DNA from: an uncultured Caldisericota bacterium
GTDB lineage: Bacteria; Caldisericota; Caldisericia; B22-G15
Assembly (NCBI GenBank): GCA_964640995.1
Contig: CAZXJJ010000002.1
Location: 146,728-210,727, forward strand
Reading direction: 5' to 3'
Length of the DNA: 64,000 bases
The position numbers were made by a program, and so were the translations under genes. How positions within the stretch are numbered: the stretch's first letter is position 1; each line of letters starts with the position of its first letter. The notes below the pieces were generated by a model that was not told the origin of the DNA, did no database searches, and saw only the letters and a program-made list of their open reading frames with translations. Shown piece by piece: positions 14,757 to 32,297 of this stretch.

Positions 14757-14784
14757 TTGACAAAAATTTCTAATAATATAAAAT
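14757..14784 (+). promoter_or_regulatory. candidate sigma70-type promoter of the rpsP operon
   Basis: TTGACA (14757-14762), 16-nt spacer, TAAAAT (14779-14784), about 35 nt upstream of the rpsP start. Confidence 0.4.
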
Positions 14785-14818
14785 TTATATTAACCTGTTT
14801 CCTTTGGAGGTGATAAGG

Positions 14819-15064: not shown

Positions 15065-15291
15065 AGGACTTGCTTGAAGAGATTGTAAAAGCATTGGTTG
15101 ATCATCCAGAGGATGTAAAAGTACAGGCAGTTGAAGGTGAACAGGCTGTTGTTTATGAAGTAAAAGTTAGTGCAGATGATATTGGTAAAGTTATTGGGAA
15201 ACAGGGAAGAACAGCAAACGCTTTAAGAACATTAGTCAGAGCAGCAGCCAGTAAATCAGGTAAGAATGCTATGGTAAACATTCTCTCTTAA
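15061..15291 (+). CDS. KH-domain RNA-binding protein (UPF0109/YlqC-like)
   Basis: 76 aa; KH GxxG loop VIGKQGRTANALR; canonical position after rpsP. Confidence 0.75.
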   Translation: MKDLLEEIVKALVDHPEDVKVQAVEGEQAVVYEVKVSADDIGKVIGKQGRTANALRTLVRAAASKSGKNAMVNILS

Positions 15292-15316
15292 TAAGAGAGA
15301 TATTCTTTTTCAAACT

Positions 15317-15339
15317 CCCCGGAGAATTTCTCTCCGGGG
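15317..15339 (+). terminator. GC-rich hairpin between tandem KH genes (candidate attenuator/terminator)
   Basis: CCCCGGAGA-atttc-TCTCCGGGG, perfect 9-bp stem, followed by TTCATTC (weak U-tract). Confidence 0.35.
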
Positions 15340-15382
15340 TTCATTCAAAATCATCAAAACAAATTTAATATGGAGGTAGATT

Positions 15383-15631
15383 ATGGCAAATGCAACAAAC
15401 GCTTCAAATCTTTTAGAAAAACTTGTAAAGATTATTGTTGATTATCCTGAAAAGGTTCAGGTTAAAAAAATTGAAGGTTCATCTACTGTTATTTATGAAG
15501 TTAAGGTTGGTCAAGAGGACATCGGTAAAGTAATTGGGAAACAGGGTAAAACAGCAGAAGCATTAAGAACTATTGTTCAAGCAATTTCAAGAAAATCTGG
15601 AAAAAGCACAATAGTTTCTATTCTTTCCTAG
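15383..15631 (+). CDS. KH-domain RNA-binding protein, tandem paralog
   Basis: 82 aa; same architecture as the upstream KH protein (VIGKQGKTAEALRTIV, ~50% identity by eye); own RBS GGAGG. Confidence 0.7.
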   Translation: MANATNASNLLEKLVKIIVDYPEKVQVKKIEGSSTVIYEVKVGQEDIGKVIGKQGKTAEALRTIVQAISRKSGKSTIVSILS

Positions 15632-15647
15632 GTAAAGGTTAAATAAA

Positions 15648-16052
15648 GTGTTAATTAAAAGACAGGTCCTTGTTAAATCCTTTGTTACAGAGGATTTAAA
15701 AAGGGATTTAATTGAAAGATTTAACAAATTAATTGAATTATCTGAAAAGAGAATTTCAGAAATTGTCTCCGAAGAGAAAAAACTACTTCTTACTGCACCA
15801 ACTATTGAACCTGCATATCTTCAAGCAGTTAAAAACAAGATAAAAGAACAAAAAGAAGAGGAAGAAAGAATAAAAGAAAACTTAATTAAAGAAAGAGAGA
15901 ACATTAAACTTCTTAAAGATGGAGAATTTTACCTTCACGGAGTTGTAGAAGGTTTTGTTGATGTAAAAGAAGGAGATGATTTCTGGAAAAAAATCCAAGA
16001 AACTGAAATCATTTTAAGGGATGGGAAGGTTGTTGAAATAAAGAATGAGTAA
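15648..16052 (+). CDS. YlqD-like protein
   Basis: 134 aa, GTG start; sits between the KH gene and rimM as ylqD does in the Bacillus rpsP operon; charged helical N-terminus. Confidence 0.45.
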   Translation: MLIKRQVLVKSFVTEDLKRDLIERFNKLIELSEKRISEIVSEEKKLLLTAPTIEPAYLQAVKNKIKEQKEEEERIKENLIKERENIKLLKDGEFYLHGVVEGFVDVKEGDDFWKKIQETEIILRDGKVVEIKNE

Positions 16053-16548
16053 ATACATAACCATCGGGGAGATTGTTTCTTTATGGGGGGTCTCCCCTTC
16101 TTTTGTTATAAAAAAAGAAACAAATAATATTGATAGATTTAAAAATATAGAAAAAATATTAGTTCAAATCCAAGATGAAGAACCTGAAGAGATCCCAATT
16201 TTAGAAATAATTGATCATGAAGATATAGTTATTGTTAAACTCAAAGATAAACCAAAAGATTCTTTAGAAAGTTATATTGGAAAATATGTTGTTATAAAGC
16301 AAGAGGATCTCAAACAATTAAAAGAAGATGAATATTATATATTTCAATTGATGAATCTTGATGTTTATGATAGTGAAGATAGATATTTAGGAAAAGTAAC
16401 AAATTTTATTTCAAATCCTAATGCAAATGATGTTATTGTAGTAAAAAATGAAAAAGAGGTTCTTATTCCATTTATGAAAATCTATATAAAAGAAATTAAT
16501 TTAGAAAAAAATTATATTAAACTTAACAAAAAATTAGATGAATTATAA
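16045..16548 (+). CDS. rimM: 16S rRNA processing protein RimM
   Basis: 167 aa; N-terminal ITIGEIVSLWGV (RimM-like) and C-terminal PRC-barrel-like region; conserved position before trmD. Confidence 0.7.
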   Translation: MSKYITIGEIVSLWGVSPSFVIKKETNNIDRFKNIEKILVQIQDEEPEEIPILEIIDHEDIVIVKLKDKPKDSLESYIGKYVVIKQEDLKQLKEDEYYIFQLMNLDVYDSEDRYLGKVTNFISNPNANDVIVVKNEKEVLIPFMKIYIKEINLEKNYIKLNKKLDEL

Positions 16549-17306
16549 TGGAATTTATAATAATCTCAATTTTTCCACAAATTTTTGAGTGTTACTTTTC
16601 TTTAAGTTTACCTAAAAAAGCAATAGAAAAAAATCTTATTAATTTTTATTTAATCTCTCCAAGAGAATTTTCTGAAGATAAGCATAAAAAGGTTGATGAT
16701 TATACATATGGTGGTGGACCTGGAATGGTGCTTATGTTTCCACCACTAAAAAAAAGTATTGATAAAGCAAAAGAAATTTCAAAAGAGACACATATTATTC
16801 TTCTTTCTCCTTCAGGAATAAAATTCAATCAGAAATTAGCAAAAGAACTTGCTCAATACAAATCTCTCACTTTTCTTTGTGGACATTATGAAGGAGTTGA
16901 TGAGAGAATAAAAAATTATATTGATGAAGAAATCTCCATAGGTGATTACATAACTTCTGGAGGAGAAATACCAACCCTAATAATAATAGATACTATTTTA
17001 AGAATAATTCCAGGTTTTTTAAAAAGAGAAGAAACAAAAGTAATTGAGAGTTTTGAAAATGGTCTTATTGAATATCCTCAATATACCAGACCAAGAGAGT
17101 ATGAAGATTTAAAAGTTCCGGATGTTCTTTTATCTGGAAACCATAAAGAGATTGTAAAATTTAGAAAAAAAGAGTCACTTAAAAGGACTCTTTTATTAAG
17201 AACAGATTTATTATTGAATAAAACTCTTACAGATGAGGAAAAATCATTACTTATAGAAATATTTGATGAAATTTTATCTTTTTATAATAAACTAAATATA
17301 GAATGA
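16548..17306 (+). CDS. trmD: tRNA (guanine37-N1)-methyltransferase
   Basis: DDYTYGGGPGMVLM and C-terminal TrmD region; 252 aa; coupled to rimM. Confidence 0.85.
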   Translation: MEFIIISIFPQIFECYFSLSLPKKAIEKNLINFYLISPREFSEDKHKKVDDYTYGGGPGMVLMFPPLKKSIDKAKEISKETHIILLSPSGIKFNQKLAKELAQYKSLTFLCGHYEGVDERIKNYIDEEISIGDYITSGGEIPTLIIIDTILRIIPGFLKREETKVIESFENGLIEYPQYTRPREYEDLKVPDVLLSGNHKEIVKFRKKESLKRTLLLRTDLLLNKTLTDEEKSLLIEIFDEILSFYNKLNIE

Positions 17307-17869
17307 AACTTTATATAGCATTAATACATTATCCAGTTTATGATATAAATAAAAAAATTATAGTTTCATCAATTGTTCCTTATGATATTGTTGATATAAG
17401 CAGAGCATCAAGGACATACGGAGTTAAAAAATATTTTATAGTTCACCCTTTTAAAGCACAAAGAGACACAATAAAAAGAATAATTGATTTCTGGACAAAA
17501 GAAAAAGGGAGTTTTTATAATGAAGATAGAAAAGAAGCGCTTAAACTTTTAAGCATTAAGAGAAATTTAAATGAAGTAATAAAATTTATTGAAAAAGAAG
17601 AAAAAGAAAAACCTAAAATTATCTTAACAAGTGCAAGAAAATTTGAAAATAATATAAATTATGAAAAATTAAAAGAAATTATTATGGAATATCCAGTTTT
17701 AATTGTTTTTGGAACAGGTTGGGGAATTGTTGTTGATAAAGTTAAACATGATTATATTTTAGAACCGATTTATGGTTTCCCAAAAGAAAATAGTTATAAC
17801 CATTTAACTGTAAGATCTGCATGTTCGATTATTCTTGATAGAATCACAAAATTATTTTCTTCTTCTTAA
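17303..17869 (+). CDS. putative SPOUT-class RNA methyltransferase-like protein
   Basis: 188 aa; C-terminal LIVFGTGWGI and NHLTVRSACSIILDRI resemble SPOUT motifs; occupies the slot after trmD where rplS usually lies. Confidence 0.45.
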   Translation: MKLYIALIHYPVYDINKKIIVSSIVPYDIVDISRASRTYGVKKYFIVHPFKAQRDTIKRIIDFWTKEKGSFYNEDRKEALKLLSIKRNLNEVIKFIEKEEKEKPKIILTSARKFENNINYEKLKEIIMEYPVLIVFGTGWGIVVDKVKHDYILEPIYGFPKENSYNHLTVRSACSIILDRITKLFSSS

Positions 17870-18883
17870 AACATAAATAAAAATTGGTGCTCCAATTAGA
17901 GAAGTCAAAATTCCTATAGGAATCTCTGATGAAGTTAAAGTTCTCGATATGTTATCTATTAATAAAAGATAAAATGAACCAAAAAGAATAGTAAAAGGTA
18001 CAAGTTTTCTGAAATCTGATCCAAGTATAAATCTACCAATATGAGGGACAGCAAGACCCACCCATCCAATTATTCCAGAGATTGAAACAGATGTTGCTGT
18101 CAATATTGTTGTTAAAACAATTATTAAACCTTTAAGTAGTTTTGGATTCTCACCTAGAGAAATTGCTTCTTCATCTCCAAGAGAAATTATATTTAATTTC
18201 CATCTTAGTAAAAAAAGAAAAATAATTCCTATTATAAAAATTGGGAATGTTAAAAAAAGTTCACTTTTAGAAATTGAATTAAAAGAACCCATAAGCCAAA
18301 AAACAATAGTTGGTAATTTTTGCATTGGATCAAGATAATATTTAACAAGAGAGAGAAGTGAAGAAAAAATATTACCAACAATAAAACCTGATAAGACTAA
18401 ATTAATATTAGAATTACTTCTTAAACTTCCACTTATAAAATATGTTAATAATACAGATAAAATACCAAAAATGAAAGATAGAATTTCAATATAGAAAAAA
18501 TTTTTACCAATTAAAACTCCTAATGCTGCACCAAATCCTGCTCCTCCTGAAATTCCGAGAATAAAAGGAGAAACAAGAGGGTTATTAAAAATTCCTTGAA
18601 GGGACAATCCACTAATTGAAAGAGAGGAGCCAACTAACATTGAAATTAAAATTCTTGGTAATCTCACATCAAACACAATCAATTTAATGTTAGGGTCTAA
18701 ATTATAATTTTTTTTAGTGAGAAAGGAGAGAAAAAATTTAATAATATCTTCTATCTTTAATGAATATCTTCCAATTGAAATTGAAAATAAAAATAAAAAA
18801 AGATTTAAAAAAATCAAAATAATAATTGTTAATAAAAATATGTTTCTAAATTTTTTCTTTTGGTATGATAAATTTTTTTCCAT
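17852..18883 (-). CDS. FecCD-family ABC transporter permease (iron-siderophore/cobalamin type)
   Basis: 343 aa, about 9 TM segments, FecCD/BtuC-like glycine-rich region (GGAGFGAALGVLIG). Confidence 0.75.
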   Translation of the reverse strand: MEKNLSYQKKKFRNIFLLTIIILIFLNLFLFLFSISIGRYSLKIEDIIKFFLSFLTKKNYNLDPNIKLIVFDVRLPRILISMLVGSSLSISGLSLQGIFNNPLVSPFILGISGGAGFGAALGVLIGKNFFYIEILSFIFGILSVLLTYFISGSLRSNSNINLVLSGFIVGNIFSSLLSLVKYYLDPMQKLPTIVFWLMGSFNSISKSELFLTFPIFIIGIIFLFLLRWKLNIISLGDEEAISLGENPKLLKGLIIVLTTILTATSVSISGIIGWVGLAVPHIGRFILGSDFRKLVPFTILFGSFYLLLIDNISRTLTSSEIPIGILTSLIGAPIFIYVLRRRK

Positions 18884-19622
18884 CTACATATATTACATCA
18901 ACATCTATTGAATAAACCTTTTTTATATTATCTTTATTTAAAACAATTTCAGGAGTACCAAAAGAAATGATCTTGTTTTTATTTATTAGCAATATTTTAT
19001 CAGAAAGGTTAATTGCTTCATTTGGATCATGCATTGTTATTATAACTGTTAAATTTCTTTTTTCTTTTAAATCTTTTATTTTTTCAAGAACAAAAATTTT
19101 ATTTCTAAAATCAAGAAATGCTGTAGGTTCATCAAGAAGTAATACATCTGTTTCTTGTGCTATTGCTCTTGCAATGAGAACAAGTCGAAGTTCTCCACCA
19201 CTCAAATCTGTGTAGGGTCTATCTTTTAAGTGAATTATGCCCAAATCCTTAAGAGATTTCTCAACAACTTCTTTGTCTTCTTCTTTTGGAATTGAGTAAT
19301 TTTCAATGTATGGATTTCTTCCCATCAAAACAAAATCAAAAACTGAAAATGGAAAATTAGGTTTATGAATTTGTGGCACATAAGAAATCTCTTTGCTTAA
19401 TTCTTTATAAGAATATTCATTTAAATTTTTTCCTGAAATTATTATATTTCCACCTTTTGGTATTAATATTTTTTGAATGAGTTTAAGAAGAGTGGTTTTA
19501 CCAGATCCATTTGGACCAAGAATTGTTAAAATTTCTCCACTTTCAATTTCAATAGAAAAATTTTTAAAAATCTCTGAATCATAATATCCAAAATTTAAAT
19601 CTTTAATAACTATCTTTCTCAT
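18846..19622 (-). CDS. ABC transporter ATP-binding protein (FecE/BtuD type)
   Basis: Walker A GPNGSGKTT, signature LSGGELRL, Walker B LLLDEPT; 258 aa. Confidence 0.85.
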   Translation of the reverse strand: MRKIVIKDLNFGYYDSEIFKNFSIEIESGEILTILGPNGSGKTTLLKLIQKILIPKGGNIIISGKNLNEYSYKELSKEISYVPQIHKPNFPFSVFDFVLMGRNPYIENYSIPKEEDKEVVEKSLKDLGIIHLKDRPYTDLSGGELRLVLIARAIAQETDVLLLDEPTAFLDFRNKIFVLEKIKDLKEKRNLTVIITMHDPNEAINLSDKILLINKNKIISFGTPEIVLNKDNIKKVYSIDVDVIYVDGKKFIIPKEKI

Positions 19623-19624
19623 AA

Positions 19625-21040
19625 TTAATTATTTAATATCTCCTCAATCTCTTTTTGATTTATATTATAATCGAAAATATTTTTATAAAAATCTTTAATT
19701 TCTTTTTCTATATTTATTTTTAAAATATCTCCATTAATTTTCTCTGCAAGCCAAATAATTCCCAAGATTGATTCAACAGAAGGAAGATCATATGAAAGTA
19801 TAAATGAAGGGAATTTATAAACCTTTTTTTCCTTAATTGCCTTAATTTCTTGAAGTTCTTTTTTATTTAAGATATCTTCTTTTGTTCCGAGAAAATATGA
19901 TGGGTAAAAAATAAATTCAGGATTAAATTTTAAAAGATCTTCAATAGAAATTTCAATTTTACCACCTTTTATATTTTTTGTTACACTCTCACCACCTGCT
20001 ATATCAACCATAAATGTTTGATAAAAATCGCTTCCAAAAGATTTTAAAATTGTTTCACCAATGATATAAACTTTTTTCTTCGTTACTCCTTTCATTGATT
20101 TTTCAATATAATCTTTCATTGTTTGATAATAACTTATAATTTTCTTTGCCTCATCTATTTTATTTAAAGCTTCACCAAGAATTTCAATCGATTTAAGGAG
20201 ATTTTCTGGGGTTTCATGATTTAATAAAAGAACAGGTAAATTAACCTCTTCAATTTTCTTTATATTTGTATAATGTGGAGTTATTATTATATCAGTTTTA
20301 AGTGAAATTAATGTTTCAACATTAAAATCTTTAAAACTTCCTATTTCAGGTAATTTATCATATTGAGGATAAATTTTTTTGATATTTTCAAAATGAACAA
20401 CTTTCTCTCCAGTGACTCTTCCAACAAGTTTATCGTGTTCTTTAAGTGAAAAAAGAATAATTGTTGACATTGGATAAAGAGAGACAATTCTATATATTTT
20501 TTTTGGGATAATTACTTTTCTACCATTTGAGTCAATTATTTCTTTAGTATCTCTATCTATTTTTATTATTATTGAACTATCCTTAGAATTATACTCTACT
20601 GTTCCTCCTAAATTTTCTATTATAAATCTTAAAGGTATATATGTCCTTGAATATAATACAAAAGGTTTAATTTTTTCATCATTGTCAATTTTTTTAACTT
20701 TTCCATTTACATAAGCACTATTTTTATCAATTGTTAAAACAATTAAATTATTTTTAAATCTTATTTCAATTTCTTTTGTTTTTTGTTTCCAAATAACTTC
20801 ACCCCCTATACTTTCAACAATTGATCTTAAAGGAACAAATGTTCTTCCAAATTTCACTATTGGTTTAATACTCTTATTTGAATCAAAATAGAGTTTATAA
20901 CCATTGATATAAAAATAGTTTTCATTTAACTTAAAAATTATTTCTGCTGGAAATCTTATTTCTTGTGTTGAAATTTTATTAATCGGTATTAATGAAAAGA
21001 CAATAAATAAAACTAATAGAATAGATAATATTTTTTTCAT
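19625..21040 (-). CDS. periplasmic binding protein (Fe/B12 class) with two N-terminal copper-amine-oxidase N-terminal-like domains
   Basis: Signal peptide; two repeats of the CuAO_N-like motif (RTFVPLRSIVESIGGEV, RTYIPLRFIIENLGGTV); C-terminal class III binding-protein region (RIVSLYPMSTIILFSL...). Confidence 0.65.
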   Translation of the reverse strand: MKKILSILLVLFIVFSLIPINKISTQEIRFPAEIIFKLNENYFYINGYKLYFDSNKSIKPIVKFGRTFVPLRSIVESIGGEVIWKQKTKEIEIRFKNNLIVLTIDKNSAYVNGKVKKIDNDEKIKPFVLYSRTYIPLRFIIENLGGTVEYNSKDSSIIIKIDRDTKEIIDSNGRKVIIPKKIYRIVSLYPMSTIILFSLKEHDKLVGRVTGEKVVHFENIKKIYPQYDKLPEIGSFKDFNVETLISLKTDIIITPHYTNIKKIEEVNLPVLLLNHETPENLLKSIEILGEALNKIDEAKKIISYYQTMKDYIEKSMKGVTKKKVYIIGETILKSFGSDFYQTFMVDIAGGESVTKNIKGGKIEISIEDLLKFNPEFIFYPSYFLGTKEDILNKKELQEIKAIKEKKVYKFPSFILSYDLPSVESILGIIWLAEKINGDILKINIEKEIKDFYKNIFDYNINQKEIEEILNN

Positions 21041-21762
21041 AATGGCCTCCTTTTAATAGTTACAAAATCAACTAGATTCTTTAAATTTTGAATGCTTCCA
21101 CCTTGTGAAATTACATTAAAAATTTTAACATTATCTTTTGGAATAATTCCTCCTAATATATCAACTCCATAATCAAATAAAACTTCAGATAAAGGAGTTG
21201 ATGGACCAAAGATAATTATGTATTTTCCCTTTGCAAGTTCTAAAATTCTTTTAATTGATTTATTAACAAAAGTGGAACCTGTTATTGCTATTATATCTCC
21301 TTTTGGAATTAAATATTCTTGGAAAGTGTCAAGATAATCATCTTCTCTTGGTTTTCTTTCAATAATAATTATTTCTTTTGCAACGCCTTCGAGTTTTTTT
21401 ATATCTTCAAAGTGTCCTATAAAAACTATTCTTTTATCTTTACCTTTTTCGACTAAATAATCAATAATATTTATAATTTCATACTCTTTTGGAACTTCTA
21501 TTAAAGAGTTTAAAGTTGCTAAACCTAAACCAATTTTTAAGGTATCGTAAGTTCTAAGATAATTTAAAATCTCTTCTGCATATTTTCCCTCAAAATTCCC
21601 TGCATCTTCAATTCCTGATTGATGTTTATTATTATCATAGGTCATGGATATTCCAACTTTTTCTGTTAAAACTGCAATCCATCTTACACCTACACAAAGA
21701 TTATTTATTTTTGTATCGAATTTTTCTTTGATTGATGTAATTAAATCTTCATAAAGATCCAC
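21037..21762 (-). CDS. DUF364/DUF4213-like Rossmann-fold protein (putative metal-chelation domain)
   Basis: 241 aa; architecture and motifs (IVFIGHF, GSTFVN, IIFGPSTP) resemble the DUF364 family often linked to metal/cobamide transporters; family assignment from memory. Confidence 0.4.
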   Translation of the reverse strand: MDLYEDLITSIKEKFDTKINNLCVGVRWIAVLTEKVGISMTYDNNKHQSGIEDAGNFEGKYAEEILNYLRTYDTLKIGLGLATLNSLIEVPKEYEIINIIDYLVEKGKDKRIVFIGHFEDIKKLEGVAKEIIIIERKPREDDYLDTFQEYLIPKGDIIAITGSTFVNKSIKRILELAKGKYIIIFGPSTPLSEVLFDYGVDILGGIIPKDNVKIFNVISQGGSIQNLKNLVDFVTIKRRPL

Positions 21763-22255
21763 AACATACCTCCGATAAAATCTTTTCTATTATTTCCTCT
21801 CTATTTTCATTATTAATCTTATAAACATAACCAAGTTTAGTTATTAACTCTAAAAATTGGGTCTTCCTATTTTTAATAACAACAAAGCACCATTTGTTTG
21901 AATTTAAAATTTCAATTACTTTATTTTTAAATTTTTTAGATTCATCCTCTAAAAAACCGAGTTCATCCATAACAATTAAATCAGTATATTTATAAGCATT
22001 CTCAAGTGCTCTTACCCCTAAATCTTCAAAGGTGTTTGAAAAAATTAATAGATTACCATCAATATTATGCATTGCAACGATCTCTTCTTCATTTGTTAAT
22101 AAATCTTTTAATTTAAAACCAATTCTAATTTCATTTATATAAAATGGATATGTTATAAAACCACCATATTTTAAATTTAGTTTGCCTAAAATAGTATTTA
22201 AAACAAAACTTTTTCCAGATTTAATTTCTCCTTCAATTATAATATTCTTATTCAT
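21749..22255 (-). CDS. P-loop NTPase (THEP1/CobU-like)
   Basis: 168 aa; Walker A GEIKSGKS, Walker B LIVMDELG. Confidence 0.5.
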   Translation of the reverse strand: MNKNIIIEGEIKSGKSFVLNTILGKLNLKYGGFITYPFYINEIRIGFKLKDLLTNEEEIVAMHNIDGNLLIFSNTFEDLGVRALENAYKYTDLIVMDELGFLEDESKKFKNKVIEILNSNKWCFVVIKNRKTQFLELITKLGYVYKINNENREEIIEKILSEVCCGSL

Positions 22256-22324
22256 AGCAAAAATCTTACTATAATTATGTACATTTTTTTGCTAAATGTC
22301 AAGAATGATAGTAAAAATTTAAAT

Positions 22325-23427
22325 TTATTTTTCCATAGATATAGTTACTTTTTTAGTTTGTGCCTCCCAAAAAACTTCAGCACCAAATGTTTCAGCAATA
22401 ATTCTTATTGGCACAAAAGTTCTACCCTTTGTTATTTCTGCTTCAGCATCAAGAGTAATTTTTTGGTTATCAATGAGTGCTTCTTTTTTACCAATAAACA
22501 AAGTTATTTTATTATTTTTGTAGAAAATATAAACTTCTTGAACTTTTCCTAACTTCGGATAATAATCTACAGTAGCTCCTAAACCTTCTGATATAAATCT
22601 TAAAGGCACCATTGTTCTTCCAGGTGGCTTTATATGCGGTTCTGCATCAAGAATGTATAGATTTTTATTAATATAGACTTCAACTTTTCCAATAAAGAGT
22701 TCAATTATAGTTTGTTTAACTTTTGGTATAACATTTACTATAACTTTGATCTCTTTTTCTCCAAAATTTCCAATTATTTTTATTTTTCCTTCATTAATTC
22801 CACCTTTAAGACCTGTTGTATTTATATTAATATTTATAAGTCCTGCATTTCCTTCAAATGATTTTGGTTCAACTGAAATCCATGAATTAAGCGAATTAAA
22901 AGAGGCTGAAATTATTCCTCTTCCGGAATTCCAGAAATTAATACTTTTGCTTTGAGAATCACCTTCAAGTATTGAACCAAAATCAAGTAAATCTTTTTCT
23001 AAAGAAATCTAGGCATAGTCTCTTCCTCAGTCATTTTAAATGTATGTTCTTTAACAAAAGGATTATCATTTAATACAGATCTCCAGAGTTCATCTTCAGT
23101 TATAATTAATGGTTTTTCATTTGACCCTTTAAGATGAATTATCATTATCTCATCACCATTTGGTACAAGATAGATATAAAATAGTTCCTTATTTTTTGCA
23201 GCTCTTTCATAAGAAAAATTTACTACTCCATCAAAAGAAAGAACCTCAACCAAAAGGGTTGCCTCTTTTAACTCATTACCATTAGAATCAGCCAAATTGA
23301 CCAGAATACTTGCTTGAGGAATTAATGGTTGATTCGGCCTCTCCTCAATCTTACTTATTATTCCTACATTTTTATATTCATATTCACATCTATATGTAAT
23401 TCCTATTTTCCTATTTTTTCGCCTGAA
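22325..23427 (-). pseudogene. frameshifted or non-canonically initiated ORFs encoding a C-terminal copper-amine-oxidase N-terminal-like domain
   Basis: Frame B is open 23008..22325 but has no ATG/GTG/TTG before Met at 22612; frame A is open 23427..22999 and overlaps B by 7 nt at A/T runs. The C-terminal 95 aa carry CuAO_N-like motifs (MVPLRFISEGLGATV, RTFVPIRIIAETFGAEV). Confidence 0.4.
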
Positions 23428-26192
23428 TCATGAACTCCATTGAAATTTTTATCCTGGAAGAAACCATGATTTATAAAAATTTTATCTATTTTATCTCTTG
23501 TAGATGTATCTATATATTTTCCTCTTAGTGCCTCATAAAGTTCTTTTATATTTTTAATCTTTTTGTCTTTTAATAAGCAAAATAAATCTTGCCATTTTGG
23601 AAATGAAAAATCATCATCATCTTTTTTATTAATTTCTTCATACCATTCATCACTATCAAGTAAATCAAGTAATAATCCTACTGTTCCAAATTCTTCATCT
23701 GATTCAGATACCCTTACTGGGTATTGTTCAATTTTTGGAGGAGAAATATTTGTATTTATTTTTTCATACATAAGTTTTCCATTAACACATTTAATATGGT
23801 TTCTATTAACTTTTTCATAAAGACCAGTTGAAGGGTTCTTATATTCATAAACAGCAGTATCAGATCTAAATTTTTCATTTTCAAGATCATTTTCTTCATT
23901 TTCCCATCTATAGGTTCCATTTCTTTGATTTAATAAATTAGAACAACATGTGCCTTTTAATTTTAAAATTCTTAAAATAATAATTGAAGTTGATTCAGCA
24001 AATCCTTCCATCAGTGAATCGCCAGTTGTGTCATTCATAATACCTCCGTGATTTTTTCTTTTGTTTCTCCCTGTCTCTTCATAAGTTGCTGTTCCAACAA
24101 GAGAGTGATGAAGAAAATGTCCAAATTCATGCCACTCTCTGTTCATTGGTCTATCATTAGAAGTTAAATTGCTGTCAGATGTTTTTATGTTAATTTTTCT
24201 TTCAGTATATCTGTAAAAAGTTCTATCTTCATTACTATAAGCACAAACATTTATTGGTAGCATAGATTTTTCTATCATATCATTACCATTACATCTTTCA
24301 TTTCTAAAGATGCTAAAGGCTTCATCCATATGACAGAAAATTTGAGCAACTGCTCTTGGATCATATCCATTATCCATAAAATCTTTTGGAAAAGTAATGT
24401 CAGTATCTTTACCTATAATTATTTCTCTATTTAATTCCTTTAAAGGGCAAGGTTTATTTTCATTTTTTATATTTACTTTCAAAAAGAAAATTTTCTTGCA
24501 ATCACTATAAGACACTTTAAATTCTTTTGTTTCAAAAAGAACCACAATTACATAATCAAACTTACAATCATTATCATTAAAAGAAAATTTAAATTTTCCT
24601 TCAGAATCAGTAAAGGTTTCCAGGTAATATTTTTTATGTGGAAGATTTGAATCAAAAGAATCATCAAGAGTATAACCTGGTTGTTCTGATGAAATCTTAT
24701 CTTTGAAATAACCTTCTTTTAATTTAAAATCTTTATCAACACTACATTTTGGTTCATAGTTTAAAAACAAAAGAACTTTTGCTCCTTTTAAAACACATTC
24801 TTTATTCTCAATATTTATAAATTTTAAAATCCCATAAATTTCTCTTGTTGTAGGACATACAGAAATTTTTAATTCTTTGATTATCTCTTTAATACAAGGT
24901 GGAGAAGGTGAGATTTGAAATTTAATGTCATATCTTAAATAGAAAGGTGCTTTATTTGGATTATCTTTTATTTCAAAAGTAATAATAATTTCTCTTTCTT
25001 CATTTACAGGTAAATTAAAATTTTCGGGATAAATTTTAATTTCGTATTTTTGTTCATCTTTAGCATCTTTGTCTTTTAATTCAATAATTACCTTAACACT
25101 TATTTTAATATTACCAATGTTTTTTGCTAATATTTTTATACTTTTAGTATTTTCTTTTTCGATATACTCTCCTCCATATTTTATATCAGTGCATGTAGGA
25201 CAAAAAATTATCTCTTCAGGATCAGATATGAATATGTTACATTCAGGTTTTATTATTTCAATAGGATAAATCCATTCACCATCATAATAACCTGTTAAAT
25301 TGATATAATCACCCTTTTTAAATTTACCAAGATCTTCATCTCTAAGTATAACTTTATATCTTTTATTATCCTCTCCATATATTCTCATATTTTTCTCTTT
25401 TTCATTTATTTCCTCAACAATACCTGAAATGGATAATTTTTGTGAAGATTTAGCAATTATTCTTATGCTTCTACTTCCTATCGCACCGTAATAAGTTGAA
25501 TACTTTGTATTAAAATTTATTTCTATTATCTCTTCTCCAGAAATAAAATTCTGAGTTTTAACTTTTATAGAAATAATTTTTATCTCATAAGGAAAAAGTG
25601 TAATATTTTTAGTAAAAATAACACCTATAATTCTTCCCTCAAAATATTCTTTTGAAGAAAAAAGAGTTAAATAACTTTCGCAGGATCCATTCTTTATTTC
25701 AAAGTTTATTGTTTTTTCGCTAAAAGGTAATATTGTTATAGTTATTTCTTTTGGAAGAATATCAAATTCTGGAAATAAAACTTTTAATTTTACTGTTAAA
25801 GTTTTTTCTGATGGAGGTACTGGTGGATTTGGTGGAGTTACTATCCACTCAAATTTTACTTTTATATACCCAACATAATCTTGTGGAATTAAATTTTTAG
25901 ACGAAATAATTACATCTATGGTGATACTTTGAGAAGGACCCACAGTATAAGGGCCAGGAGATTTTATTAAAATCCAACTTTCTAAAGTTGAAAAAGTTAC
26001 ATAAGCACTTAAAGTTTGCGAAAGATTTGTTGCTGTTACTTTGACTGTAGTTTCTTTATCAGGGCATAATGTTATTTCTATAATATCTCCATTTTCAAAT
26101 CTAACATTTCTTTGATCGGTTGTTGATTGAACAATTTGAATATTTATTAAACTTATAGATATTATAAATAAAATTATAATAAATCTTTTTAT
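23403..26192 (-). CDS. large secreted protein with HExxH zinc-metallopeptidase-like motif
   Basis: Frame open from the TGA at 26199-26201 down to 23403 (929 codons). No canonical start until GTG at 25943, yet the upstream in-frame sequence after a GGAGG RBS encodes a signal-peptide-like KRFIIILFIISISLINIQIVQS. Candidate start is ATA at 26190-26192. C-terminal region has REWHEFGHFLHH and a downstream MEGFAE. Confidence 0.5.
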   Translation of the reverse strand: MKRFIIILFIISISLINIQIVQSTTDQRNVRFENGDIIEITLCPDKETTVKVTATNLSQTLSAYVTFSTLESWILIKSPGPYTVGPSQSITIDVIISSKNLIPQDYVGYIKVKFEWIVTPPNPPVPPSEKTLTVKLKVLFPEFDILPKEITITILPFSEKTINFEIKNGSCESYLTLFSSKEYFEGRIIGVIFTKNITLFPYEIKIISIKVKTQNFISGEEIIEINFNTKYSTYYGAIGSRSIRIIAKSSQKLSISGIVEEINEKEKNMRIYGEDNKRYKVILRDEDLGKFKKGDYINLTGYYDGEWIYPIEIIKPECNIFISDPEEIIFCPTCTDIKYGGEYIEKENTKSIKILAKNIGNIKISVKVIIELKDKDAKDEQKYEIKIYPENFNLPVNEEREIIITFEIKDNPNKAPFYLRYDIKFQISPSPPCIKEIIKELKISVCPTTREIYGILKFINIENKECVLKGAKVLLFLNYEPKCSVDKDFKLKEGYFKDKISSEQPGYTLDDSFDSNLPHKKYYLETFTDSEGKFKFSFNDNDCKFDYVIVVLFETKEFKVSYSDCKKIFFLKVNIKNENKPCPLKELNREIIIGKDTDITFPKDFMDNGYDPRAVAQIFCHMDEAFSIFRNERCNGNDMIEKSMLPINVCAYSNEDRTFYRYTERKINIKTSDSNLTSNDRPMNREWHEFGHFLHHSLVGTATYEETGRNKRKNHGGIMNDTTGDSLMEGFAESTSIIILRILKLKGTCCSNLLNQRNGTYRWENEENDLENEKFRSDTAVYEYKNPSTGLYEKVNRNHIKCVNGKLMYEKINTNISPPKIEQYPVRVSESDEEFGTVGLLLDLLDSDEWYEEINKKDDDDFSFPKWQDLFCLLKDKKIKNIKELYEALRGKYIDTSTRDKIDKIFINHGFFQDKNFNGVHDSGEKIGK

Positions 26193-26273
26193 CCCTCCTC
26201 ACCTCCGTGGAAATAATATTAATAATTATTTACAATTTAATTATATAATAAAATTTGTATAAGGAGGAATTTT

Positions 26274-27245
26274 ATGAAAAGATTTTTTATTTTCACAACA
26301 ACTTTAATAATTTCATTATTGATTGTCGTTTCGCCTGTTTTTGGTTGGTCAAGTCATGGTAAAATGACTTACTATGTTACAAATGATGTTGAATGGTTGA
26401 ATAAATTTAATAATATTACAATTACAGAATATTCATATAGTGATATTGATACAGAGCCATATAACCCGGATTTTAAAATTGTTTATAAGGAAGGAAATAT
26501 TGGAGAAAAAACAACTGCTCTTGAAATTCTATCAATTTATGCTGATGAACCTGACTGGGATATGGATCGCAATTTAAAACTTTCTCCTTTTCAAAAAATA
26601 ACAGGTGGCTCTTCTGGGTGGAGACATCAATATTTTATAACTTTATTTGGAATTGTAAGATTAGGAAAAGCACCAGATAGAGCACAATATTTTTATAATT
26701 TAGCACTTAAAGCATTTGATAGAGGTGATTTTTATTGGGGTTTCAGATTTTTTGCTCGCTCACTTCACTATCTTGAAGATTTAACACAACCACTTCATTC
26801 TTTTCCTCTTCCTTACTCAATTGTTTTAAAAAATATTTTTGATTTGAATGGACTTATTAAAATTGGAGAGAATCACCATTATGCATTAGAAGATTATCAA
26901 GAGGTTCAAGTTGATATTTTAAGAAAAGTTTATCTTGAAGCACTTTATACAGATGAAACTTTTGATGTCAGAACAATTAGAAGATTAGGAGTTTTAAATG
27001 CTTTTAGAGCAAGAAAAGATAGTGGCAAAATTTTTAGAATTCAAGAAAAGTTTTATGGAAAAGAGATAAATAATAAAAATGGCTTTTCTATTAATAAAGA
27101 TGAATACAGAGTACTTATTAATAATGAATACCAAGATGAATATGATGAAGTAATTAAAAAACATTTAACAAATTTTGCAAAAACAGTTAACACTGCTCTT
27201 AAACTTCTTCAAAATGATTTATCTAAAATGGGTGTTTTAGACTAA
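26274..27245 (+). CDS. secreted zinc-dependent S1/P1-nuclease / phospholipase-C superfamily protein
   Basis: Signal peptide, predicted mature N-terminus WSSHGK (Trp1/His metal ligands); LHYLEDLTQPLHSF resembles the S1/P1 H-x-x-D-x-x-QPLH motif; HHYALEDY; 323 aa. Confidence 0.55.
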   Translation: MKRFFIFTTTLIISLLIVVSPVFGWSSHGKMTYYVTNDVEWLNKFNNITITEYSYSDIDTEPYNPDFKIVYKEGNIGEKTTALEILSIYADEPDWDMDRNLKLSPFQKITGGSSGWRHQYFITLFGIVRLGKAPDRAQYFYNLALKAFDRGDFYWGFRFFARSLHYLEDLTQPLHSFPLPYSIVLKNIFDLNGLIKIGENHHYALEDYQEVQVDILRKVYLEALYTDETFDVRTIRRLGVLNAFRARKDSGKIFRIQEKFYGKEINNKNGFSINKDEYRVLINNEYQDEYDEVIKKHLTNFAKTVNTALKLLQNDLSKMGVLD

Positions 27246-27304
27246 TTTTTTAACTAATGCATTAACTTTACATTTAAATTAAATTAATTTATAATTTTAG
27301 TTGC

Positions 27305-27398
27305 GGAGAGATGGCCGAGTGGCTGAAGGCACCTGCCTGCTAAGCAGGTGACGGGGTGAAAACTCCGTTCGCGGGTTCGAATCCCGCTCTCTCCGCCA
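27305..27398 (+). tRNA. tRNA-Ser (anticodon GCU)
   Basis: GGAGAGA acceptor pairing with TCTCTCC, discriminator G, CCA encoded; anticodon loop CTGCTAA; long variable arm; T-loop GGTTCGAATCC. Confidence 0.9.
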
Positions 27399-27407
27399 CT
27401 TTATTTT

Positions 27408-27484
27408 GCGCCCATAGCTCAATTGGATAGAGCGGCGGACTACGGATCCGCAGGTTGTGGGTTCAACTCCCGCTGGGCGCGCCA
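27408..27484 (+). tRNA. tRNA-Arg (anticodon ACG)
   Basis: GCGCCCA/TGGGCGC acceptor, D-loop AATTGGAT, anticodon loop CTACGGA, T-loop TTCAACT, CCA encoded. Confidence 0.9.
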
Positions 27485-27489
27485 TTCTG

Positions 27490-30315
27490 ATGAATAATAA
27501 CTATATATTTGTTAAAGGTGCAAGAGTACACAATTTAAAAAATATTGATATAAAAATCCCAAGAAACAAATTGGTTGTGATAACTGGATTATCTGGTTCA
27601 GGCAAATCTTCTCTTGCTTTTGATACAATTTATGCTGAAGGTCAAAGAAGATATGTCGAATCTCTCTCTTCATATGCAAGACAATTTCTTGAACTTATGG
27701 ATAAACCAGATGTTGATTTTATTGAAGGTTTATCTCCTGCAATTGCAATAGATCAGAAAGCTACTACTCATAATCCAAGGTCAACTGTTGGAACAATGAC
27801 AGAAATTTATGACTATCTCCGACTACTTTTTGCAAGAATTGGAACTCCACATTGTCCTGAATGTGGAAGAGAGATAAGAAAGCAAACTCCACAAGAAATT
27901 GTTGATCAAATTCTCTCTTTTCCAAAAAACACAAAAATTATAATTCTCTCTCCTGTTGTAATTGGTAGAAAAGGAGAGTACAAAAATCTTTTTGAAAAAT
28001 TAAGAAAAGAAGGTTTTGTTAGAGTAAGAGTTGATAAGATAATTTATACCCTTGAAGAAGAAATAATATTAGATAAAAATAAAAAACATGACATTGATAT
28101 TGTTATTGATAGATTAATTATTCAAGATGATATTAAAGGAAGATTAACAGATTCGGTCGAACTTTCATTAAAATATTCAGAGGGTCTTGTAAAAGTTTTA
28201 AATGTTGAAAACAATGAAGAAATTATATTTTCATCAAGATTTGCTTGTCCTCATTGTGGAATTTCTCTTCCAGAAATTGAACCAAGACTATTTTCTTTTA
28301 ACTCTCCGTTTGGTGCTTGTGAAGAGTGTCAAGGTTTGGGATTTAAAATGGTTGTTGACCCAGATTTAATAATTCCAAATAAAAATTTATCAATTAGAGA
28401 AGGTGCAATAAAAGTTGCTGGATTTCAAAGTGAAGATGGATATACAATAGGTATTTTAGATGACCTTCTATCTAGTTTTGGATATAATGTTGATAAAAAA
28501 ATAAGTGATTTGGATGAAGAAGTTTTAGATATATTGTTTTATGGAACTAAAAGTAAATATTGGCATTCCACAAAATTAAGAAAGGGTTATAGACACTATA
28601 TCTATTGGGAAGGACTTGTTCCTATAATTGAAAGAAGATATAAAGAGACAGAATCATTTGAGATGAAAGAGTATTACGAAAAGTTTATGAGGTTTTTACC
28701 ATGTCCAGTTTGTAATGGAAAAAGATTAAAAAAAGAAGCCCTTGCTGTAAAAATCGGTGGTAAAAACATTTCAAAAATAACTGAAATGAATATTGAAGAT
28801 TGTTTGAAATTTTTTGAAAATTTATCTTTAACTGAAACACAAAATATAATTGCAAAACAGATACTTAAAGAGATAAAATCAAGACTCAAATTTTTAATTG
28901 ATGTGGGATTAAATTATTTAACACTAAACAGAGAATCAAGGTCTCTTTCAGGAGGTGAAGCACAAAGAATTAGACTTGCAACTCAAATTGGCTCTGGTTT
29001 AACTGGAGTCTTATATGTTTTAGATGAACCAACAATAGGACTTCATTATAGAGATACTAAAAGGTTATTGGACTCATTAAAAAGATTAAGAGACCTTAGC
29101 AATACTTTAATTGTTGTTGAACATGATGAACAAATAATAAAAGAATCTGACTGGATAATAGATATGGGTCCAGGTGCAGGAGAAAATGGTGGTAGAGTTG
29201 TTTTTGAAGGAAAATTTAATGAAATTATAAATGATAATGATTCTTTAACTGGTAAATATCTCTCTGGAAAATTAAAAATTGAAATTCCAACTAAAAGAAG
29301 AAAGGGAAATGGAAAATGTTTCGAAATAATTGGTGCAAAAGAACATAATTTAAAAAATATAAATGTGAAGATTCCTTTAAATACATTTACATGTATAACA
29401 GGAGTATCTGGTTCAGGAAAATCAACATTGATTTATGACATTTTATATAAGGGACTCGCAGGAATTTTTTACAACTCAAGTGAAAAACCAGGAAATTTCA
29501 AAGAATTTAGAGGTTTAGAAAATATTGATAGAGTTGTTCTAGTTGATCAATCTCCAATTGGAAGAACCCCAAGATCAAATCCCGCAACTTATACAAATGT
29601 TTTTACTCCAATTAGAGAACTATTTTCAAAAACAAGAGAGGCAAGAGAAAGAGGTTATACTCCTGGAAGATTTTCATTTAATGTCAGAGGTGGAAGATGT
29701 GAAGCATGTGAAGGTGCAGGAATTAAAAAAATTGAAATGCAATTTCTTCCAGATGTTTATGTTACCTGTGAAGTTTGTCAAGGAAAAAGATACAATAGAG
29801 AGACACTTGAAATTGAATGGAAGGGAAAAAATATTTCAGATGTCTTAAATATGACTGTTGATGAAGCATTTGAATTCTTTGAAAACATTGAACCGATAAA
29901 AAGAAAACTAAAACTATTAAAAGATGTTGGACTTGGTTATATTAAACTTGGTCAACCTGCACCAACTCTTTCTGGTGGAGAAGCACAGAGAGTAAAACTT
30001 GCTTATGAGCTATCAAAAAGTTTTAAAGGTCATACACTTTACCTTCTCGATGAACCAACAACAGGACTTCATTTTGATGATGTTAAAAAACTTTTGAATG
30101 TTTTAAATAGATTGGTAGAAAAAGGAAATACTGTTGTTGTCATAGAGCATCATCCAGATGTAATAAAAAGTGCAGATTACATTATAGATCTTGGACCAGA
30201 GGGTGGAGATGAGGGTGGATTTATAGTTGGAGAGGGAACTCCTGAAGAAATTGCTACAAATTATAACTCTTATACTGGAGAATTATTAAGAAAAATTTTG
30301 AATATTAAAAATTAA
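27490..30315 (+). CDS. uvrA: excinuclease ABC subunit A
   Basis: Starts [21 protein letters not shown]; two ABC modules ([20 protein letters not shown]; two LSGGE signatures) and zinc-finger Cys pairs. ORF-track start 27457 would overlap tRNA-Arg. Confidence 0.95.
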
Positions 30316-30321
30316 TATTCT

Positions 30322-31233
30322 CTAATTCAATTTAAAGAAAAAAATTGAAGTTGGCGAAATCTTTCTCTGTTCGAAAGTTAAAATCTTAAGAAATTCTAAA
30401 TATAAAGCCTTTCTTAAAGATAAAACTTCTCTTTCTAAAAGAATATACTCATTTATTAAATTAGTAAGTGTTCCTTTGTTGAAGTTTTCAGTTTTGAGGG
30501 CTTCTTTTTGTTTTTGATTATTCTCTTTTATTTTTTCTAAAATAACTTTCTCTTTTTCTTTTTCATTTTTAAACAACTCTTTCACTTTTTCAATTTGTTG
30601 ATCAGTGAGATTAAGTCTCCTTTTTAGAAATTGCAAATCAAGATAATACATTAATTTTAACTTTTTAGAATTCTCCTTTTCTATCATTTCTTTAAGATTT
30701 TTTCTCTGCTTTTCAGATAAATTTAGTCCTCTACCAACTTTTATATAATTTCTTATTTTTTGGTTGAAATTTTCAAGTTTTTCCTTAATAAAATCTGGCA
30801 TAAAACCTTTAGATTTTATAATTGAAAATTCAGTAAATGTTGGGAAAAATTTTATTTGTTCTTTATTTAAAATGGATATTATATTTAGATATGCATCTTT
30901 CTTTAAATTTGAAAGATCAACTAAGTTTTTTATTTGTGATTCAACAAGAAAATTTAGCTCTTTTTCATTTAAAACTTCTTTTGAGAGTAAAACTTTTTCT
31001 TTTTCACTATTTTCCTTTATTTTCTTTAGAATCTCTTCTCTTTTATCTCTTAATTCTTTTAATATTTTCTCAATTTTTTCTTTCTGTTCGTATGTTAAAT
31101 TTAATTTTTTAATGTTGAATGGTGGAAATTTTTCTTGAGAATTTTTTAGAAAATTACCTGCATAAACTCCAGTTAAAACTATTAAACCTGAAAGTAAGAT
31201 TATAAGAATTGTTATTAAAATTTTTTTATTCAT
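30322..31233 (-). CDS. periplasmic LTXXQ-motif protein (Spy/CpxP-family-like)
   Basis: Signal peptide/anchor, then repeated LTxxQ-type motifs (LNLTYEQKEKI, LNLSEKQRKNL, LNLTDQQIEKV, LTFEQRK) in a KE-rich helical protein; 303 aa. Confidence 0.5.
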   Translation of the reverse strand: MNKKILITILIILLSGLIVLTGVYAGNFLKNSQEKFPPFNIKKLNLTYEQKEKIEKILKELRDKREEILKKIKENSEKEKVLLSKEVLNEKELNFLVESQIKNLVDLSNLKKDAYLNIISILNKEQIKFFPTFTEFSIIKSKGFMPDFIKEKLENFNQKIRNYIKVGRGLNLSEKQRKNLKEMIEKENSKKLKLMYYLDLQFLKRRLNLTDQQIEKVKELFKNEKEKEKVILEKIKENNQKQKEALKTENFNKGTLTNLINEYILLEREVLSLRKALYLEFLKILTFEQRKISPTSIFFFKLN

Positions 31234-31287
31234 AATGCCTCACCTCCACCTATTTATACAAACAAAATTCAATTTTGTTACAAGGTA

Positions 31288-31375
31288 TGGTGCCGGAGGT
31301 GGGAATCGAACCCACACGGACTCATCGTCCGAGGGATTTTAAGTCCCTTGCGTCTGCCTGTTCCGCCACTCCGGC
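31288..31375 (-). tRNA. tRNA-Leu (anticodon UAA)
   Basis: Reverse complement reads GCCGGAGTGGCGGAACAGG...AGGGACTTAAAATCCCT...GGTTCGATTCCCAC...CTCCGGCACCA; long variable arm, anticodon TAA. Confidence 0.9.
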
Positions 31376-31377
31376 AC

Positions 31378-31452
31378 TGGAGGCGGCACCCGGATTTGAA
31401 CCGGGGAATAACGGTTTTGCAGACCGTCGCCTTACCACTTGGCTATGCCGCC
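31378..31452 (-). tRNA. tRNA-Cys (anticodon GCA)
   Basis: Reverse complement reads GGCGGCATAGCCAAGTGGTAAGGC...GGTCTGCAAAACC...GGTTCAAATCCGGGTGCCGCCTCCA; 2 nt from tRNA-Leu. Confidence 0.9.
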
Positions 31453-31517
31453 AACACCTAAGTTTATTTATATCAAACTTAAATATTATTTCAAGTTATT
31501 TGATAAAATATAGAAAT

Positions 31518-32297
31518 ATGAGTTATTTTTTTGTAGATTCACATATTCATCTTGATATGAAAATTTTTGATTCAGATAGAGAATTCGTAATAAAAGAATC
31601 TATTGAGAATGGTGTAAAATATTTACTTAATGTTGGTTATGATTATGAATCCTCTTTAAATTCACATAAATTATCCAAAACATATGAATTTATCTATGCT
31701 TCTCTTGGTTTTCATCCACATGATGCAAAAAATTTTAAAGATAAACATTTAAATGAATTTGAAAAATTTATAAAAGATAACAAAAAAGTTGTGGCAATCG
31801 GAGAAATTGGTTTAGATTATTATAGGAATCTTTCACCAAAAGAAACCCAAATAGAAGTTTTCGAAAAACAGATTGAATTTTCAAAAGAGATTAATTTACC
31901 AATTATAATACATGAAAGAGATAGTTTTTGGGATACAGTAGAAATTTTAAAAAAATATAAAGGCAAAATAAGAGGAGTATTTCATTGTTTTGGCGGAGAT
32001 ATATCAAAGTTAAAAGAAGTTATAAATTTAGGTTTTTATTTAGGAATTGGAGGAACCATAACATATCCAAAAAATAATATCTTAAGAGAAACAGTAATAA
32101 GGGCTCCAATTGAAAGAATTTTGCTAGAAACAGATGCTCCATATCTTCCTCCTCAGAATTTTAGAGGAAAAAGAAATGAACCTAAATTTTTAATATATAC
32201 TGCCGAATATTTAGCAAAATTATTTAATATATCAATGGAAAAATTATCAGAAATAACTAACAAAAACTTTTCAGAATTATTTAAAATATCTTTTTAA
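31518..32297 (+). CDS. tatD: TatD-family metal-dependent hydrolase (DNase)
   Basis: Starts MSYFFVDSHIHLD; motifs GEIGLDY, IIHERD, ETDAPYL; 260 aa. ORF-track start 31275 is an artefactual extension across the tRNA genes. Confidence 0.85.
   Translation: MSYFFVDSHIHLDMKIFDSDREFVIKESIENGVKYLLNVGYDYESSLNSHKLSKTYEFIYASLGFHPHDAKNFKDKHLNEFEKFIKDNKKVVAIGEIGLDYYRNLSPKETQIEVFEKQIEFSKEINLPIIIHERDSFWDTVEILKKYKGKIRGVFHCFGGDISKLKEVINLGFYLGIGGTITYPKNNILRETVIRAPIERILLETDAPYLPPQNFRGKRNEPKFLIYTAEYLAKLFNISMEKLSEITNKNFSELFKISF

Follow-up and report, generated by a model that had tools for sequence, protein, structure and literature searches.

A 64,000-nt stretch of the forward strand of contig CAZXJJ010000002.1 (assembly GCA_964640995.1, positions 146,728 to 210,727) from an uncultured Caldisericota bacterium was analyzed, and this whole stretch is referred to below as the window. 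On its minus strand, three consecutive open reading frames (ORFs) in three different frames lie where relatives carry a single gene for a secreted protein with an HExxH zinc-protease motif. The frame that contains the HExxH motif is open from 26198, next to a TGA at 26201..26199, to a TAG at 23405..23403; ORF A is open over 23427..22999 and ORF B over 23008..22325. These coordinates and frames, first given in a sequence-only reading of the same DNA, were reproduced, and so was the absence of any canonical start codon before GTG 25943, which is the earliest ATG, GTG or TTG of the large frame and lies 85 codons in. Overlaps of 25 and 7 nt had been given for the two junctions; the second is 7 nt only without the stop codon and 10 nt with it. 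The deposited annotation of the locus is a GTG-start protein of 846 amino acids (P0002).

Upstream of GTG 25943, the large frame encodes (I)KRFIIILFIISISLINIQIVQS, which follows GGAGGTGAGGAGGG. Anti-Shine-Dalgarno matching found a match of at least 6 nt ahead of ATA 26192, no match upstream of GTG 25943, and matches of only 3 nt at the first canonical starts of ORF A and ORF B. Among the 66 window ORFs of at least 120 amino acids, the first canonical start lay a median of 4 codons after the upstream stop, with a 90th percentile of 12.5. The 85-codon start-less lead of the large ORF is the maximum of this set, and the 132 start-less codons of ORF B are the longest such stretch in all frames of the window. 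Because both values are extremes for the window, the three-ORF pattern is more than would be expected by chance.

With the fused conceptual protein as the query, four full-length proteins of 1272–1286 amino acids were recovered at 50–74% identity and ~100% coverage, and one of these is listed as a protein of a Caldisericia metagenome-assembled genome (MAG). The same query also retrieved P0002. A fifth intact ortholog, P0008 (1283 amino acids, 83% identical), was found in the 90% cluster of P0002. In the protein alignment, the five intact orthologs (1272–1286 amino acids) are collinear with the window across all three frames, and the translations of the three ORFs align with one protein rather than with three independent genes. 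The neighborhood shared by the orthologs comprises uvrA and a gene for a 323-amino-acid protein upstream, and genes for NTPase_1, DUF364, a Cu_amine_oxidN1-Peripla_BP_2 binding protein, an ATP-binding cassette (ABC) ATPase and a FecCD permease downstream. It is common to the window and to four of the five intact orthologs, on both sides in contigs L001, L003 and L052 and on the upstream side only in L002; the neighbors of P0005, on the short contig L004, differ from those of the window. The flanking genes of the window are equal in length to those in the relatives. Since the intact orthologs are collinear, full-length and mostly syntenic, the three ORFs are fragments of one orthologous gene. 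The repaired gene encodes 1286 amino acids, in agreement with the single secreted HExxH protein of ~1300 amino acids with a C-terminal Cu_amine_oxidN1 domain that had been proposed from sequence. Protein-pattern scans of the Joint Genome Institute (JGI) metagenome and GTDB genome collections returned no same-species contigs, only more distant relatives, and look-ups of P0002 and of the NTPase neighbor gave no additional contigs.

Base-level comparison with the orthologs located three lesions (Table 1). The first affects the start codon. The orthologs carry GGAGG followed by ATG AAA AAA (L001-L003 and L052) or TTG AAA AAG (L004), and the window carries GGAGGTGAGGAGGG ATA AAA AGA, in which the third base of the start codon is changed from G to A. 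All orthologs start with MKK at the position of the window's ATA, so that this ATA, already named as the implied start (or else a base-call error) in the sequence-only reading, coincides with the ATG or TTG of the orthologs; a non-canonical start conserved across the orthologs was not found. The ATA is also present in contig L055 of another assembly (GCA_900098825.1). In Escherichia coli, initiation at AUA reaches ~1–2% of that at AUG (bioRxiv 10.1101/063800), and it would presumably be low in this organism.

The second lesion lies at junction 1, where the orthologs carry a single copy of the sequence in GAA AAG ATA GGA GTT ACA TAT AGA TGC (E K I G V T Y R C), with GAA AAx ATx GGA GTT ACA as the general pattern. 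The window reads GGC GAA AAA ATA GGA AAA TAG GAA TTA, with AAAATAGG present twice in tandem, and it carries an extra KIG in the protein alignment. The extra 8 bases shift the frame at amino acid 929 and create the TAG at 23405..23403; deletion of one AAAATAGG copy gives back GEKIGITYRC exactly. The same duplication is present in the Logan assembly of run SRR7473445. The third lesion, at junction 2, is the deletion of a single G at approximately amino acid 1060, and it causes the second frame shift. The orthologs read CCT GAG TTA TCT TTA GAA AAA, CCA GAA ATT TCT or CCA GAG ATT, and the window reads CCT-AG ATT TCT TTA GAA AAA; the lost G lies outside any homopolymer. Of the two single-nucleotide corrections that had been suggested, the one at junction 2 therefore fits, and the one at junction 1 has to be replaced by the removal of an 8-bp tandem duplication. 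The short A/T runs in the overlaps, to which attention had been drawn, are incidental, and junction 1 is not a slip in an A run. A homopolymer assembly error, which was among the explanations offered at that time, does not fit the types of the lesions: one is a substitution, one an 8-bp duplication, and the deleted G lay outside a homopolymer. Two of these lesions are also found in other assemblies.

The same comparison bears on recoding, that is, the production of one protein through AUA initiation and two programmed -1 ribosomal frameshifts, which the sequence-only reading had also listed. The strong Shine-Dalgarno sequence ahead of the ATA and the low-level initiation that AUA allows would fit such a device, as would the GGA-AAA-TAG made by the duplication, where the P-site Lys-tRNA could re-pair one base back, in the needed direction. 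The adjacent overlapping frames and the A-rich A AAA TAG at junction 1 resemble programmed -1 frameshifting in dnaX and in insertion sequence (IS) elements, and the near-cognate AUA after a strong Shine-Dalgarno sequence resembles the autoregulated AUU start of infC. Unlike in those systems, however, these features are not conserved in the orthologs, which have canonical starts, uninterrupted frames and no conserved recoding signal. The RNA downstream of junction 1 is unstructured (fold z-score -1.04), and junction 2 (AGA TTT CTT TAG) has no slippery site and offers no -1 tRNA re-pairing. Moreover, clonal relatives keep the G of junction 2 yet carry other disabling lesions, contrary to what a conserved device would show. 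Recoding was therefore rejected as extremely improbable.

Four public contigs match the window almost perfectly. Over 23408..31316, L055 (GCA_900098825.1) shows 100% identity, the ATA included; its other end, 31316, falls inside a tRNA-Leu gene. L054/L058 (Logan, SRR7473445) covers 13625..26081 with only two differences: it has the duplication and also the G at 23010, and a C>T change at 22360 turns CAA into TAA, 12 codons ahead of the normal stop. L053/L059 (GCA_900096875.1) covers 13625..23409, likewise with two differences, the G at 23010 being kept and the G at 23049 being lost, which is a frameshift. L056 (FMJZ01047831.1) is identical over 26223..32245; its positions 1–8, opposite window 26215..26222, diverge just upstream of the ribosome-binding site of the protease gene before the contig ends, a sign that the 5' side of the locus is strain-variable in that metagenome. 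Outside the gene, no differences were found in the ~28.5 kb of pairwise comparison with the four contigs, and random sequencing error is therefore very low. Inside the gene, three distinct mutational events were found in ~7.6 kb compared, all three of them disabling and all in the last 700 nt; they account for every difference between the window and L058 and L059, contigs of 9.8–12.5 kb.

The end of L055 at 23408 and the beginning of L053/L059 at 23409 mark the exact boundary of the 8-bp duplication, and these are the last and first bases common to the one-copy and two-copy AAAATAGG alleles. Because both contigs stop there, they are uninformative on whether the duplication is present. Such ends would be the expected output of a de Bruijn assembler at an unresolved one-copy/two-copy bubble, and they suggest that an in-frame one-copy allele coexists in the samples of GCA_900098825.1 and GCA_900096875.1, where the duplication would be polymorphic.

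These contigs also make it possible to weigh an assembly or consensus artefact, in which the gene would be intact and the lesions would stem from assembly of a MAG from a mixed population or from sequencing error. Such an origin would agree with the fact that two further, nearly identical assemblies keep the G at position 23010, with contigs of two ENA assemblies that break exactly at the duplication, suggesting allele heterogeneity, and with the departure of L056 from the window below 26223, just upstream of the start, at a locus that is strain-variable in metagenomes. However, none of the three lesions is a change in homopolymer length. A Logan assembly made from another run also has the duplication, and a separate ENA contig also has the ATA. 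With 0 differences in 28.5 kb of flanks on four contigs, random error is very low, and it is unlikely that one gene would collect three artefacts while the flanks compared have none. Exact look-ups of four hypothetical repaired proteins in the collection, aimed at a one-copy allele, found no match, an outcome regarded as uninformative rather than negative. No widespread frameshifts were seen in the assembly; by inspection, the overlapping ORFs at 35.6–38.2 kb are complete proteins. An artefact is thus considered quite improbable.

The age of the inactivation was estimated by comparing the repaired gene with the close intact ortholog in L052, whose source run SRR8369165 is from hot-spring sediment (PMC9241837). 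The ratio of nonsynonymous to synonymous divergence (dN/dS) was 0.25, at a synonymous divergence (dS) of 0.37. Of the 501 columns without variation among the five intact orthologs, the window departs at 21; the leave-one-out counterpart for the four closer intact orthologs is 15–30 columns. All invariant residues of the catalytic motif are kept. These results indicate that the inactivation is recent and that the gene was under purifying selection until then. Along the gene (window 22325..26192 versus L052 3648..7499), dS is mosaic, with 0.08 in amino acids 300–600 and ~0.7 in amino acids 0–150 and 750–900; the downstream flanking genes have a dS of 0.006–0.08, far below that of the gene. The mosaic divergence suggests recombination between strains or diversifying pressure at a surface-protein locus. 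Accelerated evolution in the window lineage was also considered and was not taken as evidence, since the divergence is mosaic and the relative-rate test was significant with one outgroup only (chi-square 6.6 with P0001, 0.3–2.0 with other outgroups).

The three ORFs are thus best explained, with a probability of about 0.8, as a recently inactivated pseudogene; related Caldisericia carry the intact gene, which encodes a secreted, presumed zinc protease of ~1280 amino acids. Intact orthologs of the fused frames, together with three base-level lesions, bear out the decaying pseudogene that had been one of the options in the sequence-only reading. As in other young unitary bacterial pseudogenes, an intact syntenic ortholog exists in close relatives, several independent disabling lesions are present, the frames are still recognizable and there is no excess of amino-acid change. 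In contrast to usual pseudogenes, flank-identical sister assemblies carry different lesions, and there are hints of a segregating in-frame allele. In the relatives, the protein begins with a Sec signal peptide, which is followed by Ig-like domains, a transthyretin-like beta-sandwich, the HExxH domain, two more beta-sandwich/Ig-like domains and two Cu_amine_oxidN1 repeats. Three ordinary mutations, the change of ATG to ATA, the 8-bp duplication at amino acid 929 and the loss of a G at approximately amino acid 1060, would disable the gene. The residual product would at best be a trace of a 929-amino-acid protein initiated at AUA, which would keep the signal peptide and the Ig-like and protease domains and would lose the C-terminal 357 amino acids, including the tether. 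The gene is presumably non-functional in vivo.

Some observations weigh against this interpretation. The G deletion at 23010 occurs in the assembly of the window only, two near-identical assemblies keeping the G, and it could be an error of the consensus or an allele of low frequency. Given the contig ends at the duplication, a form of the gene that is undamaged, or damaged less, may persist in nature. The product of the first ORF could stay active if AUA initiation in this organism is more efficient than in E. coli. In addition, the MAG of the window and L055 are possibly derived from the same reads, in which case L055 would not count as fully separate evidence for the ATA.

Different disabling lesions in flank-identical assemblies could result from a first inactivating mutation with neutral decay thereafter, or from selection that favored loss more than once. 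The latter would be a special case of the pseudogene, in which separate mutations in an otherwise clonal population abolish the protease or its tether again and again, possibly driven by escape from a phage or predator that uses the protease or by the saved cost of a shared exo-enzyme ("cheating"), with the 8-bp duplication as an on/off allele that segregates and might be reversed. The loss of the G at 23010 in the window, that at 23049 in GCA_900096875.1 and the CAA>TAA change at 22360 in SRR7473445, all in the last 700 nt, would be such events, and three events in 7.6 kb of gene against none in 28.5 kb of flanks correspond roughly to (0.21)^3 = 0.009. The branch points predicted for one-copy and two-copy alleles coincide with the contig ends at 23408 and 23409, and the gene and its 323-amino-acid neighbor are hot spots of strain divergence, with dS up to 0.7 versus 0.006–0.08 in the flanks. 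On the other hand, only three genotypes are available, and if the start change or the duplication came first, the later changes would be neutral. In that case, only ~7 kb of the flanks are effectively neutral, so that the enrichment is weak, ~0.14 under this model by our arithmetic. Two copies of an 8-mer are not a typical contingency tract, and no long simple-sequence repeat tract, as in a phase-variable locus, was found in or before the ORF. Repeated or switchable selected loss is therefore regarded as unlikely. It is equally doubtful that selection for the loss or release of the surface enzyme is ongoing, as might be read from at least four lesions in the C-terminal part, the start change and the segregation of an in-frame allele.

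The encoded protein was further characterized by domain, structure and family searches. The signal peptide was assigned by inspection, and all five intact orthologs have hydrophobic leaders at their N-termini that align with it. The region that follows it gave weak matches only, to Pfam Cep192_D3 and, in P0001, to the NCBIfam choice-of-anchor T domain. The beta-sandwich before the catalytic domain matched PA1324 and dioxygenase beta-sandwiches in Foldseek. At the start of the ORF B frame, PF22544 matched with an E value of 4e-4, under the curated cut-off, and this match also appears, marked as faint, in the precomputed Pfam listing for P0005. The copper-amine-oxidase N-terminal-like domain that had been recognized at the end of ORF B is Pfam Cu_amine_oxidN1 (PF07833), matched in two stretches at E 6.4e-32 (110.2 bits, gathering cut-off 24.2) and present in all orthologs. 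From its domain context, this pair of repeats probably holds the protein on the cell envelope; two C-terminal PF07833 repeats are a likeness to the Cu_amine_oxidN1 proteins of Gram-positive-like and deep-branching bacteria. Beyond these repeats and the weak Ig-like matches, Pfam recognized nothing in the fused protein.

The HExxH motif is HEFGH (amino acids 688–692, 24131..24117), and the invariant Glu of EGFAE (24008..24006) is presumed to be the third zinc ligand. The HExxH region had no match in NCBIfam or PDB sequence searches, and Pfam peptidase models, including Peptidase_M4 and Peptidase_M4_C, gave 0 matches in the window protein or in 55 family members. An exhaustive phmmer search with the HExxH domain returned 403 cluster representatives (50% identity clusters) at E <= 1e-3, and the family alignment was drawn from it; a word-index search with the domain profile found 4 proteins only. 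Distant relatives of the region were detected in Chloroflexota, Bacillota, Altiarchaeota, Woesearchaeota, Methanosarcinales and Nitrososphaera, and in 25 of the 55 family members CarboxypepD_reg lies directly upstream of the HExxH domain. Members of the family share the signature RPMNREWHEFxH...NHxG..N.sT.DS..EGFAEF...EEFAVAGLLWDL.D, with E, H-E-x-x-H, H, N, S and E-G invariant family-wide; H248, E249, H252 and E289 (numbering of alignment A3) are invariant over the 55 sequences, and the same residues are likewise invariant in alignment A2.

Structure comparison of the catalytic domain gave values of 17.7 for thermolysin (247 residues aligned, 6% identity), 15.7 for the M36 fungalysin, 15.4 for LasB and 12–13.5 for M1 aminopeptidases, in agreement with Foldseek (thermolysin, E 9e-4), and the domain has a thermolysin-like two-lobe fold. 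The second His and the Glu are separated by 20 residues in thermolysin and by 18 in M1. In the family of the window this spacing is 37 residues, and the family differs further from the known MA(E) gluzincins (M4 thermolysin/LasB, M36 fungalysin and M1) in its 6% identity to thermolysin, in its own signature and in a large beta-rich insert in the Caldisericia members. The ancestral product is a secreted clan MA gluzincin with a thermolysin fold, of a family that is unmodelled in Pfam and NCBIfam, and it presumably had zinc-protease activity.

Table 1. Lesions, domains and regulatory elements at the protease-gene locus (window coordinates; amino acids numbered on the repaired protein unless stated otherwise)
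Feature	Positions	Strand	Basis or remark
Promoter-like TTGACA-17-CATAAT ahead of the NTPase_1/DUF364/binding-protein/ABC genes	22274..22302	-	11/12 matches, consensus match only
Two Cu_amine_oxidN1 ("stalk") repeats	22328..22717 (boundary 22717 approximate)	-	PF07833
Ig-like (HYDIN/VesB/BACON-like) domain, start of ORF B frame	22847..23010	-	PF22544 match
Lesion 3, one G missing (CCT GAG ATT > CCT AG ATT), leading to TAG 23001..22999	23010..23011	-	DNA comparison
ORF A segment, beta-sandwich after the protease, ~ortholog amino acids 930-1060	23011..23401	-	Collinear with orthologs, many invariant residues
Lesion 2, duplication AAAATAGG/AAAATAGG (copy 1 23417..23410, copy 2 23409..23402)	23402..23417	-	DNA comparison with orthologs
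Thermolysin-fold HExxH catalytic domain, amino acids 561-929	23406..24512	-	
Transthyretin/CarboxypepD_reg-like beta-sandwich before the catalytic domain, amino acids 441-560	24513..24872	-	AF2 model, Foldseek
N-terminal immunoglobulin (Ig)-like beta-sandwich region, amino acids 24-440	24873..26123	-	Weak matches; conserved in orthologs
Sec-type signal peptide (I/M)KRFIIILFIISISLINIQIVQS	26124..26192	-	Assigned by inspection; aligned with leaders of five intact orthologs
Lesion 1, ATA at the ortholog start-codon position (ATG>ATA)	26190..26192	-	DNA and protein alignment
Shine-Dalgarno region GGAGGTGAGGAGG before the ancestral start	26194..26206	-	Same GGAGG precedes ATG/TTG in L001-L004

Downstream of the broken gene, the NTPase_1 and ABC genes have a promoter-like site of their own, which suggests that they are independent of read-through, and polar effects on them are therefore not expected. 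The binding protein encoded there (19625..21040, minus strand, 471 amino acids) is the substrate-binding protein of a FecCD/ABC transporter, in which an N-terminal Cu_amine_oxidN1 is fused to Peripla_BP_2; this suggests that Cu_amine_oxidN1 is a general envelope-tethering module in this organism. On the other side, the divergent gene at 26274..27245 (plus strand) encodes the 323-amino-acid secreted protein, which is a neighbor in four of the five ortholog loci (not in L004) and whose mature N-terminus would start near WSSHG. It had no Pfam match and a weak PDB sequence match to Bacillus cereus zinc phospholipase C (E 0.06), and its gene diverges unusually fast between strains (dS 0.23, 86% amino-acid identity to L052).

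Genes for tRNA-Ser(GCT) and tRNA-Arg(ACG) (27305..27484, plus strand) lie between the 323-amino-acid gene and uvrA, and genes for tRNA-Leu(TAA) and tRNA-Cys(GCA) lie at 31288..31452 (minus strand). Mechanical ORF listing produced artefacts over these tRNAs, namely the ORF 27297..27485 and the 5' ends of 27457..30315 and 31275..32297. A transfer-messenger RNA gene with the tag peptide ANTNYAFAVA was found at 8097..8449 on the plus strand (ARAGORN; Rfam RF00023, 162 bits). The lowest G+C of the window (0.205–0.23) is at 46000..50000, a region that holds a 988-amino-acid TTG-start ORF (47082..50048).

In conclusion, the annotation should join the three ORFs, the deposited P0002 included, and mark them as a single pseudogene instead of three hypothetical proteins. 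The types of the lesions speak against a homopolymer artefact, and the assembly can therefore probably be trusted at this locus. The HExxH thermolysin-fold family, at present unmodelled and comprising ~400 clusters at 50% identity from Caldisericota, Chloroflexota, Bacillota and several archaeal phyla, could become a Pfam or MEROPS family. The several loss-of-function alleles among flank-identical assemblies could be pursued at read level as an example of a gene lost recently in nature. If the loss were indeed selected, which is considered unlikely, selected loss of an enzyme would have been caught in metagenomes, in an unannotated thermolysin-fold family that is shared with Chloroflexota and several archaeal phyla.

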